A stretch of 64,000 nt of DNA, from assembly GCF_054482525.1 (NCBI RefSeq), contig NZ_CM137006.1; one strand, written 5' to 3'. Each line of letters starts with the position of its first letter. Position 1 is the first letter of the stretch. Position numbers: made by a program. Of this stretch, positions 30,001-33,000 are shown piece by piece.

Positions 30001-33000
30001 TGAATGGTCAAACCGTAAGCCGTGATGGTGCGCGTAATCTCGGTGAAGTACGTACCGGAGTTGAGGCGAAAGTAAATCACAACCTTAGCCTGTGGGGGAA
30101 TGTCGGTGTGCAACTAGGTGATAAAGGCTATAGCGATACTCAGGGCATGCTGGGTGTGAAATATAGCTGGTAAACCGTATAAGCCGCATGTCGAAGATGC
30201 ATGCGGCTTAATATTGCCGACTTCAAACGACTTTTAAATCCTCCTTTTTATCCGCGATCGCGGATATCGCAGCGTTTATCCCGTAGAGCGGATAAGATGT
30301 GTTTCCAGATTGACTTTATCCTCACTAAAGGATAAAACTGATAATATCCCCTTGAGCGGATAAATTTGCTGTGGACGTATGACATGATGAGCTTTCAGAA
30401 GATCTATAGCCCAACGCAATTAGCGAATGCAATGAAACTGGTTCGTCAGCAAAATGGCTGGACGCAGAGCGAGCTGGCGAAAAAAATCGGCATTAAGCAG
30501 GCGACAATTTCCAATTTCGAAAACAACCCTGACAATACCACGCTGATGACATTTTTTAAGATTTTACAGTCGCTTGAACTCTCAATGACGCTATGCGACA
30601 CGAAAAATGCCTCGCCAGAATCAACAGAACAGCAAGATCTGGAGTGGTAATGCCTAAACTTGTCACTTGGATGAACAACCAGCGGGTAGGCGAGTTAACG
30701 AAGTTAGCCAATGGCGCGCACACCTTTAAGTATGCACCGGAGTGGTTAGCCAACCGTTATGCCAGACCGTTATCACTTTCGCTGCCATTGCAGAGGGGGA
30801 ATATCACCTCTGATGCCGTATTTAACTTCTTCGATAACCTGTTACCCGATAGCCCGATTGTACGTGACCGGATCGTTAAACGTTATCATGCTAAACGTTG
30901 TCCTCAATCAGATAGAGCATTTTATCGTATTGTACAGTCAGATTTTTTGATACCCGGCGAGGCTCTCGCCAGGTAAATTCTGCATCAAGGTCATCGTCTA
31001 ATGCCAGCGGCCGGTACGCGTTAAAATCATGCAAGGGTTCTTTGGCAAAGCGCCGGTTATAATCCGCCATGTATTCTTCTGCAAATGCATTGGCCGCTTC
31101 TATTGTACAGATCCCCTTAAGCCTGAGCTCCTTAACGAGTCGGTCCTGAAGTGTCAAATGAGCACGTTCAACGCGGCCTTTTGCCTGGCTGGTTTCAGCA
31201 CACAAAGGAGTAATATTAAGGCAGCGCATGGCCCTGGCAAACTGGGTATCGCCGAGACCGGTGGTGGCGTGCTTATTATTGACTCTGAATACGCTGGCTT
31301 TATCGCTGTAGAGGATCATCGGTCTACCGTATTCAGTGGTGGTCGCAGCCATCAATTTGTATCAGCTCGCCAGTACAAGGACGCCGGTAACGAGGCTGAT
31401 GAATTTTCGGTGCGCGTTGTCTGCGGGGGATCCAGAGTCCCGCGTTTATCATGAGACGTCGGATGGTTTCCTTTCCAAGGACCAGACCGTGAACTTCCTC
31501 CAGCTTTTCCCGCGCCAGCGTGGGGCCAAAATCACGGTAGTGCTCCCGGATTATACTGAGTGCCTCCAATGAGCCACAAATAGAACATTAGCATTGAGCC
31601 TCTATAATTTTGGTGCGCATAATGTGCTACACGTTATGTTGAAAAGGCCGCTGCGAAAATAGAACCCCGCAGCGGCCTCTTTAGCATAACGTCATTGTGC
31701 GAACCAATTATTTATTTTTTTGATTTTTGAGTTGCCTCAATTTCTTTTTTTAAACCATGAAGGTTTTTATGACCGGTTCCCTTTGGTTGTAACTGTCCCC
31801 TTTGTAACTTACTGATTCTATTTCCTCTTTCTGATATTACTATTTCATCATTCAGGGATTTTTCAATCAATGCATACAACGCATTGAATACTTTGATGTT
31901 TTCTGATTCCCTCAACTCTTCGAGGATTTTACTTAGTTGTAGAAAGTCATTAATTAAACTAACGCCATTTTTAGGATCGTAAAACTCCTCATGTCGTTTT
32001 AACATCTTTGCAATCTTTTTTTGCTTATCTGTTGCGTTTGACATTTTCCCTTTCCCTTCAACTAGATTTAATCATTACATTCAACCGTTGCTACGGTTCC
32101 ATAATAAGTAATGTAAAGAAAACTTCCATTATTGAACTGGCCAACAGAGGTCGATACTTTTACCCCGTAAATGACATTTCCTTGTCTACCTGCAGAATTC
32201 ACGAACGCATCATAGGCTTCCTGGTGCTCATTTCTCTTGCGCTCCATAAAACCACGAATTAAACCTTTATCAGAAATTTCAATAGGATAGGTCTTCTCAA
32301 TAAATCCATGAATCTCTACTACTTTCATATTGGAGGGCAATGTATCAGTGCTTAACACTAACATGTTGATTTCCTTTCAATTAAAGAACCTTAATGACAT
32401 TACTTAATTATTTCATTTCAATCAACAACATATGGGTTGTTTTTTATCATTCCGACACTATATCTAGGCGAGATAACTAAAATGGCTAGTTATCACTATA
32501 CCTCTAAAGGATAAAATAATGGCTGACTTCTACATAACAGCAGTAAAATATGATGAAAATCATGAACATATCGTTAAGGTTAAAACACGGCAACGAGTTG
32601 ATGGTAAGGTTAAAGCACCAAGCATCAATTCTCGCCAATTTATCGTCGAATTGATTAATACCGGAAAGGTATCATTTTGGACTGGATTACAGGATAGCGA
32701 AGGACGATGGGGAAAAGGGGCTGACGTGACCGTAACCTCTACTGGTTTCCTGACTACATCACCAAATAATACCACTCGGGATAACCTCGGCGAATTGCCT
32801 GAATTTTAACCAAAAATCAAACGTGCAGTGTAGGTAATACTGCACGTTTGTCTCATTCCTGAGACTCTACCTTTTACTGTTCATCGCCAGTGATTAATTT
32901 TCTGGTTAACATCTTTGCACTGTAGCTATATGAACTTAAAGCAGAAACCTGTCTTGCAAGTGATATGATATCTTGCTTGTCCAATGTCCTGATGTTCCAG

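Follow-up and report, generated by a model that had tools for sequence, protein, structure and literature searches.

We analysed a 64,000-nucleotide stretch of contig NZ_CM137006.1 (NCBI RefSeq assembly GCF_054482525.1), referred to below as the window, in which a group of three small genes occupies positions 31712–32809. A preliminary description of this DNA had presented the group as a moron-type cargo module beside the attachment (att) site of a filamentous prophage, and this placement held: an inverted pair of dif-like sites adjoins the genes, which lie inside the tandemly repeated unit of an 8,743-bp UPphi-like inovirus prophage at dif in the Escherichia coli chromosome terminus. Open reading frame (ORF) calling reproduced all three genes at the coordinates and strands first proposed. 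Two of them form a minus-strand pair, in which a gene for a 98-amino-acid protein with a predicted YbjQ/DUF74 fold (32068–32364) comes first and a gene for a 110-amino-acid protein (31712–32044) second, separated by the 23-bp gap originally given (32045–32067). The third, on the plus strand (32519–32809), encodes a 96-amino-acid DUF3892 protein and constitutes its own transcription unit. Shine-Dalgarno-like sequences precede all three ORFs, none of the genes has an Ff counterpart, as had been stated, and the GC content of the module is 35.6%, compared with 40.9% for the remaining phage and 49% for the host.

The prophage is present as three full copies and one partial copy (3.7 in all) in tandem from 31612 to 64000, with zero mismatches between copies. 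Because the array is perfect, with a period of 8,743 bp, the 1,098-bp module is not single in the window: comparison of the copies placed identical modules at 40455–41552, 49198–50295 and, in the partial last copy, 57941–59038, again with zero mismatches, a four-fold repetition that the preliminary description had overlooked. Each copy is bounded by inverted pairs of dif-like sites, which a pattern scan located starting at 31612, 40355, 49098 and 57841 and which read GGTGCGCATAATGTGCTACACGTTATGTTGAAA on the plus strand and GGTTCGCACAATGACGTTATGCTAAAG on the minus strand. At the host junction the attP1-type site, GGTGCGCATAA-TGTGCTACACG-TTATGTTGAAA (31612–31644, plus strand), is an attL hybrid; in a related Dickeya locus the XerC arm is replaced by the host's own version (GGTTCGCATAA), which fits such a hybrid. 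The inverted attP2-type site, GGTTCGCACAATGACGTTATGCTAAAG (31679–31705, minus strand), and the stop codon of the 110-amino-acid gene are 6 nt apart.

An inverted repeat at 31631–31692, with 25-nt arms that are 88% complementary, provides the stem of the att hairpin and has as its core the GC-rich stem GGCCGCTGCG/CGCAGCGGCC (31646–31677), followed by TTTT on the minus strand. Folded as single-stranded DNA (ssDNA), the region 31606–31712 is predicted to adopt a forked hairpin with an unpaired central bulge (free energy −33.2 kcal/mol, z-score −8.5; none of 200 shuffled sequences folded as well), and this att region recurs at +8743, +17486 and +26229. An Rfam scan of 31400–33600 returned only sub-threshold hairpin noise on the same stem. 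The arrangement suggests that the prophage was integrated by the host XerCD recombinases through a folded ssDNA att site. The inverted repeat is also the likely terminator of the minus-strand operon, and on the other side a hairpin with a perfect 12-bp stem (32818–32850), a candidate bidirectional terminator, separates the convergent DUF3892 and repressor genes. The proposal that the module has terminators on both sides therefore agrees with the hairpins found, with the addition that the left one doubles as the att hairpin stem.

The repressor gene (32874–33320, minus strand) encodes a 148-amino-acid helix-turn-helix (HTH) protein (phrog_3557, E = 1e-61) and marks the boundary of the cargo without belonging to it; it is retained in sister prophages that carry different cargo. 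Past it lies a complete inovirus gene set consisting of a gene II-type Rep, gene V, coat, g3p, a Zot-like gene I and a secretin, and this core is IKe/I2-2-like, with gene I 75% identical to that of I2-2. In the divergent intergenic region of the module (32365–32518), a sequence scan recovered the candidate operator palindrome GATAACTA-N7-TAGTTATC at 32472–32494, once per phage copy. Its conservation in Dickeya is uninformative because the Dickeya and window sequences are nearly identical. The palindrome is unlike the GGACAAATATGTCC-type repeats of the repressor/Rep intergenic region (33320–33494), which are probably operators of the 148-amino-acid repressor. We had considered that the phage repressor acts on the module through the same operator, and dropped the idea because neither the palindrome nor its half-sites recur in the repressor/Rep control region.

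The position between the CTX-type double att hairpin and the phage repressor, inside the phage unit, proved to be highly variable. We compared the module DNA with 5,426 complete E. coli genomes using megablast and sensitive blastn; with either program only the flanks of the module matched, and the cargo itself was found in none of the genomes. At least 80% of the phage core is present in 51 of them, again with this cargo in none. Six sister prophages carry six different gene sets between the conserved att and repressor/Rep regions: a Doc/Fic toxin (locus L001); proteins of 120 and 129 amino acids (L002); 88 (DUF6953), 89 and 140 amino acids (L003); 110 (unrelated to the window genes) and 140 amino acids (L056); 230, 91 and 46 amino acids (L057); and 250 and 140 amino acids (L058). 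In L001–L003 the att region is 90–95% identical and the repressor/Rep sequences are conserved around non-homologous cargo. Several draft E. coli genomes do contain the phage with the three window genes, at an unvarying position, and in L020 the trio lies inside tandem copies. We consider it very probable, on this basis, that the locus is accessory cargo in a hypervariable inovirus slot.

The locus had also been put forward as something undescribed, and here the claim divides. The gene families are undescribed, and this part stands. The slot itself is not, because UPphi phages have been reported to carry a variable slot on the dif side, with ORFs adjoining dif that vary between prophages and other ORFs taking their place where they are missing in most cases (PMC7307601). 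What the window contains is thus a known kind of locus, the variable moron slot of a dif-integrating inovirus, filled with undescribed gene families.

The AlphaFold2 (AF2) model of the 98-amino-acid protein, built from a 24-sequence alignment, has a mean predicted local distance difference test score (pLDDT) of 88.7, and the top seven PDB matches returned by Foldseek are all to the YbjQ-family structures 1y2i, 3qkb and 1vr4 (probability 1.0, TM-score 0.67–0.72, E = 5e-6 to 1e-3). The next PDB match after these has E = 0.25, and weak dodecin matches are present. The Pfam models YbjQ_1/DUF74 (PF01906) and YbjQ_2 (PF23025) did not match the protein (best E = 0.17, to YbjQ_2), and none of the 24 family members passed either at E ≤ 0.001; at E ≤ 0.1, six reached YbjQ_2 and two YbjQ_1. 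Since the structure matches and the hidden Markov models fail, we regard the protein as having the YbjQ fold yet falling outside the Pfam family, so that the original YbjQ/DUF74 assignment stands at the level of fold and not at that of the Pfam models. An hhalign comparison of the family with an E. coli YbjQ sequence gave a probability of 2.4% and was not used as evidence. The protein has an isoelectric point (pI) of 5.6 and is probably cytoplasmic and, to judge from its fold, probably oligomeric.

The 98-amino-acid gene is under very strong purifying selection: the ratio of nonsynonymous to synonymous substitution rates (dN/dS) is 0.009 against the Proteus homologue and 0.023 against that of Kosakonia, with dS saturated at 1.5–1.7, and the Proteus homologue shares 97% amino-acid and 85% nucleotide identity. 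This pattern of substitution strongly supports its status as a coding gene. Nucleotide similarity to Proteus and Kosakonia ends at the gene ends, and we considered whether the gene moves as a cassette with exact boundaries; we make no such claim because, with dS saturated, decay of the non-coding flanks explains the pattern equally well.

The family is rare, and its members occur in inoviruses or inovirus remnants of E. coli, Dickeya, Proteus, Kosakonia, Pantoea, Gilliamella, Xenorhabdus, Comamonas and Haemophilus, as well as in an IMG/VR contig; tblastn of the protein against GenBank phage records gave no match. The gene is the last before att in an inovirus of Proteus whose Rep belongs to a different family, and it has this place also in the Gilliamella, Xenorhabdus, Comamonas and Haemophilus inoviruses and the IMG/VR contig. 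The distance from its stop codon to an attP2-like site is 4–16 nt in Proteus, Pantoea, Edaphovirga and Gilliamella; in the window the 110-amino-acid gene is interposed between it and attP2. The gene is kept in decayed remnants from which the phage is gone, in Dickeya, in Kosakonia and Pantoea (both adjacent to dif) and in Gilliamella (L051), a retention that fits a benefit to the host. All-against-all BLAST of the neighbouring genes revealed no conserved partner, with the exception that in several inoviruses a 61–83-amino-acid phrog_2503/5642 protein is encoded upstream, about 170 bp from the 98-amino-acid gene.

Two of the remnants have an architecture of their own. In Kosakonia CP158851 (L013, 4600–10400), att-like pieces at 4631–4687, 6249–6325 and 8944–9002 separate small cassettes and an insertion sequence (IS) by the host dif, and the region looks like stacked remnants of successive Xer-integrated elements, each retaining only its att-proximal cargo. 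In Gilliamella apicola (L051, 7501–8418), the host dif and an att hybrid enclose a unit of roughly 0.9 kb that holds only a 66-amino-acid phrog_5642 protein and the YbjQ-like gene, with no phage; this unit could be a minimal remnant or a satellite-like mini-element.

Outside phages, some homologues of the 98-amino-acid protein adjoin known immune genes. In Edaphovirga and an Enterobacteriaceae metagenome-assembled genome (MAG; L039 and L040) the homologue follows the gene for a CAP12/Pycsar-type TIR protein after a gap of 20 bp (Pfam PF10137, E = 2.5e-20; TIR effector and PDC-S35 in PADLOC). In Vreelandella (L048) it directly follows a DRT8 reverse transcriptase and its PD-(D/E)xK partner, and on Pseudomonas syringae plasmids it directly follows a methylase, a BsuBI/PstI endonuclease (together a type II restriction-modification, or R-M, system) and an FxLYD protein. 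In Kosakonia and a Methylophilaceae genome it stands behind membrane proteins. A YbjQ-like homologue of about 52% identity in Sulfurovum, Campylobacterales and Cloacimonadota MAGs (L041–L047) belongs to a conserved block that is common across phyla and includes a convergent gene of about 360 amino acids and another of about 83; no inovirus or defence hallmark was detected in this block.

The 110-amino-acid protein is basic (pI 9.7), and its AF2 model (pLDDT 84) is all-helical, with four helices. It matched nothing in Pfam, PADLOC or NCBIfam beyond a chance-level PADLOC match to HerA (E = 0.006, 13 bits), and Foldseek found no neighbour of the model in the PDB or AFDB50. A profile search of 1.84 billion representative sequences gathered 22 proteins with no tie to a known family, and IMG/VR held no relative. 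Compared with Dickeya the gene has a dN/dS of 0.04, an estimate that rests on few changes. A Serratia homologue comes after a Lamassu system (LmuB, E = 2e-192) and an intervening 245-amino-acid gene, and is itself followed by a decayed att hairpin. Two metagenomic proteins (P0077 and P0081, at loci L029–L031) have the 110-amino-acid family as an N-terminal domain fused to a C-terminal pentapeptide-repeat (Qnr/MfpA-like) domain, beside a DUF4238 gene. In Moraxella lacunata (L014, 8001–8330) a member lies between DUF5682 and VWA_CoxE, 18 bp before the VWA gene, in a cluster of the SWIM/DUF5691/MoxR/VWA type.

The 96-amino-acid protein belongs to Pfam DUF3892 (PF13031; independent E-value 4.3e-9, residues 6–94 against positions 2–71 of the 71-position model), which bears out its original assignment. 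It also matches phrog_32719 (E = 7.5e-16), a family of unknown function, and carries the conserved C-terminal motif TTxPNxTTRDNLGxLP. Its nearest DUF3892 relatives, precomputed as PF13031, are 45–49% identical; one homologue is carried by an integrative element, where ardA and a relaxase-like gene adjoin it. The dN/dS comparison for this gene was uninformative. Two reports (bioRxiv 10.1101/2022.04.27.489752; eLife PMC12419801) tie DUF3892 to defence operons under CapH/CapP-like regulators and propose a dsRBD/HPF-like fold for it. Our literature search found no experimentally tested DUF3892 function. Searches of PDB sequences with single sequences and with profiles gave only chance-level matches for all three proteins.

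The three genes had been described as a coherent module, and this did not hold up. As a trio they travel in this phage lineage and otherwise only in a Dickeya remnant of 1.9 kb. That remnant has the host dif and an att hybrid as its borders, and nothing is left in it but the trio and a truncated repressor. In inoviruses of Proteus, Gilliamella and Xenorhabdus the 98-amino-acid gene is monocistronic, and different genes partner it in Kosakonia, Pantoea and Edaphovirga; the 110-amino-acid family is found apart from it in Serratia, Moraxella and metagenomes. Of the checks that had been proposed, structure prediction with AF2 and Foldseek supported the YbjQ fold and Pfam the DUF3892 call; the survey of homologue neighbourhoods turned up no obligate trio. 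It is firmly established that the cargo consists of three small genes that move independently of one another; their arrangement is that of two transcription units.

To the left of the prophage, the flank is that of the E. coli terminus, with an ECSE_1600-type autotransporter gene, hipB, a truncated hipA and an IS remnant. Within 30593–31569, hipA is cut after about 127 codons and is followed by the remnant, two frameshifted minus-strand transposase ORFs immediately left of attL; hipA is intact at the same place in sister genomes. A second accessory region of about 1 kb (39360–40354), between the secretin gene and att, contains an 81-amino-acid minus-strand ORF and is probably the counterpart of UPphi h1/h2.

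The explanation that we prefer for the cargo is that its three genes would be expressed in the lysogen and would shield it, and hence the prophage, in conflicts with other phages or with competing elements that integrate at dif, either through exclusion or through abortive defence. The YbjQ-fold protein would be the core piece, binding a ligand or a partner. Others have proposed a sensor-like role for the DUF3892 domain in which it binds nucleic acid or ribosomes, and the 96-amino-acid protein may act in this way. The 110-amino-acid protein, a basic helical orphan, is encoded by a gene inserted between the YbjQ-fold gene and att. We favour such a conflict role because the 98-amino-acid gene outlives the phage and recurs beside immune effectors, and because precedents exist among inovirus accessory regions, which carry superinfection exclusion genes and toxin-antitoxin (TA) systems (PMC6813254) and the KKP defence module (PMC11341870). 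For the combined statement, that this is inovirus cargo of a hypervariable slot with a conflict role in the lysogen, we estimate a probability of roughly 0.42, and a defence or exclusion function taken by itself likewise has somewhat less than an even chance. More doubtful is a narrower form, in which the 98-amino-acid protein would be a phage-borne single-gene conflict factor (for exclusion or defence, or as a binder of an immune signal or effector), att-proximal in inoviruses and domesticated beside TIR, DRT and R-M genes, with the 110-amino-acid and DUF3892 proteins as further undescribed components.

Several observations weigh against a conflict role, and it must be read cautiously. Promoter predictions for the module are weak. 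The palindrome was located exactly by the preliminary description and is statistically unremarkable: a perfect 8+8 palindrome with a spacer of at most 12 nt turns up in about 7% of random 154-mers matched to it in composition, so chance is not exceeded. None of the three proteins matched NCBIfam, PADLOC (PADLOC-DB v2) or known toxin or antitoxin families. The association with defence neighbours consists of only a handful of loci, and a recognisable defence gene is absent near the homologue in L037, L038 and the Epsilonproteobacteria block L041–L047. Moreover, the tight linkage of the 98-amino-acid gene to att across divergent phages could instead point to a role in the phage life cycle, and the DUF3892 homologue beside the anti-restriction gene ardA fits counter-defence equally well.

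Counter-defence, in which the small proteins would aid the filamentous phage in immune-armed hosts, is in our judgement unlikely. The YbjQ-fold oligomer could, for example, soak up a nucleotide that serves as an immune signal, in the manner of the small oligomeric sponges Tad1, Tad2 and Acb2, or block an effector, and the DUF3892 protein could be anti-restriction-like. In favour are the small size, solubility and probable oligomeric state of the proteins, the presence of small-molecule binders in the YbjQ/dodecin-like fold class, the mainly phage-borne distribution of the 98-amino-acid family, the DUF3892 homologue that adjoins ardA on an integrative element, and the adjacency to TIR, DRT8 and R-M genes, which could mean an antidote-like role. 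Purifying selection in phage-less remnants, however, fits a benefit to the host better than a function in phage entry; an operon shared with a chromosomal TIR effector at 20 bp would be odd for an anti-defence gene; and the likeness to sponge proteins is an analogy. The defence-type character of the non-phage neighbourhoods, as opposed to a virulence-type one, makes it rather improbable that the genes instead change biofilm formation, stress tolerance, virulence or persistence of the host, a possibility for which ctxAB in CTXphi and the virulence effects reported for the CUS and Ypf phages are precedents. Accessory genes at the ends of integrating inoviruses do often alter host behaviour (PMC7307601), and the canonical YbjQ family is of a housekeeping type; against this, no signal peptide or membrane segment was evident by eye (no dedicated predictor was run), all three proteins are hydrophilic (grand average of hydropathy −0.21 to −0.84), and scans of the NCBIfam, PHROGs and PADLOC libraries found no similarity to virulence factors.

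The mosaic distribution counts against the TA-like pair that had been suggested earlier, taken here as an addiction system in which the 98- and 110-amino-acid proteins would stabilise the prophage array at dif. Two small co-oriented genes 23 bp apart, one product acidic and one basic (pI 5.6 and 9.7), have the look of such a pair, TA systems are common inovirus cargo (PMC6813254), and a sister prophage carries a Doc toxin in the same slot. The reading is weakened, however, because pairing is not obligate: the 98-amino-acid gene is monocistronic in inoviruses of three host genera or has other partners, the 110-amino-acid family occurs separately, and neither protein matched a toxin or antitoxin in NCBIfam, PADLOC, Pfam or PDB sequences. 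We accordingly hold it to be improbable.

We give equally little credence to a helper function at att, by which the att-proximal protein would aid Xer integration of the folded ssDNA site or control induction, even though, in inoviruses whose Rep families differ, the 98-amino-acid gene and an attP2-like site are 4–16 nt apart. XafT of TLCphi and RstB/RstC of CTXphi and RS1 would be functional analogues; to our knowledge the module proteins have no similarity to XafT or RstB. The 110-amino-acid gene abuts att here and, in decayed form, in Serratia, its product is basic, and two of its relatives are fused to pentapeptide repeats, which are DNA mimics. What weakens this explanation is that sister prophages share the att region, lack both genes and are nonetheless integrated, some of them in tandem; in addition, the genes persist in immobile remnants, and no att site accompanies them in the Moraxella, plasmid and TIR/DRT contexts. 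Finally, the module is AT-rich foreign DNA and two of its three ORFs lack a match to a known family, as would be expected of decaying passenger DNA with chance ORFs. That the ORFs are non-functional is nevertheless extremely improbable given the dN/dS values (0.009–0.023 for the 98-amino-acid gene, with dS saturated, and 0.04 for the 110-amino-acid gene), the confident AF2 models of these two proteins, the significant Pfam match of the third and the Shine-Dalgarno-like sequences before all three; for the 98-amino-acid gene it is effectively refuted.

In our view the most interesting element of the locus is the YbjQ-fold family, which recurs next to att in inoviruses and has immune systems among its neighbours. 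Extra-intestinal E. coli and related pathogens commonly carry filamentous prophages at dif, whose slots have yielded cholera toxin and the Pf defence modules. The UPphi-like slot turns over almost completely between close relatives, and its YbjQ-fold cargo belongs to a family that is unusually conserved, tracks att sites across inovirus lineages, outlasts the phage and neighbours known immune systems. Should exclusion, defence or counter-defence be confirmed, it would be the first concrete function for any protein of the widespread YbjQ/DUF74 fold, and att-proximal inovirus slots would join the places to mine for immune and anti-immune genes; should no such phenotype appear, the locus would be ordinary uncharacterised phage cargo.

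Among known systems, the UPphi phages (Shapiro & Putonti 2020, PMC7307601) are the closest in overall plan. They share the IKe/I2-2-like core, CUS/Ypf-type genes II and V, integration at dif, tandem triples, and reverse-oriented ORFs just past dif beside a conserved regulator; h4 and h5 were reported in 56 and 57 of 229 prophages, respectively, with "other ORFs in these positions" in most others, and the dif-side ORFs were left uncharacterised (PMC7307601). Compared with the phages as described in that paper, the window phage differs in gene content and in having one cargo gene on the opposite strand. With integrative mobile elements exploiting Xer (IMEX) of the CTXphi type it has in common two inverted dif-like sites around a GC hairpin, a forked ssDNA stem with an unpaired central bulge, tandem prophage arrays at dif and cargo that adjoins att. 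What sets it apart is cargo placed on the repressor side of att and without relationship to ctxAB, rstB or rstC; its XerCD dependence and ssDNA integration are deduced from the sequence only.

The Pf modules (the toxin-antitoxin system PfiAT, the kinase-kinase-phosphatase module KKP and exclusion of the PfsE type) and the exclusion genes of Roux et al. 2019 are likewise small variable sets at the edge of an inovirus (PMC11341870, PMC12328805, PMC6813254). Their genes are expressed while integrated, and experiments have shown their effects on superinfection or defence (PMC11341870, PMC12328805, PMC6813254). The window cargo has no sequence or domain relationship to them. The DUF3892 protein resembles those of the conflict systems treated by Burroughs & Aravind 2020, as cited in the two reports named above, in being a Pfam member, small and stand-alone, and on a mobile element; it differs in having no fused effector (such as a Min-Wnt domain) and no metallopeptidase partner. 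The divergent arrangement of its gene beside an HTH regulator also recalls the reported HTH/peptidase-controlled DUF3892 operons. Canonical members of the YbjQ/DUF74/UPF0145 family (1y2i, 3qkb and 1vr4), for their part, are chromosomal proteins of a housekeeping type, whereas the 98-amino-acid family is borne by phages and mobile genetic elements and its window member is only 17–21% identical to them. The two nevertheless have the same predicted fold and the same order of strands and helices, and a flexible loop in the middle of the protein is conserved in both.

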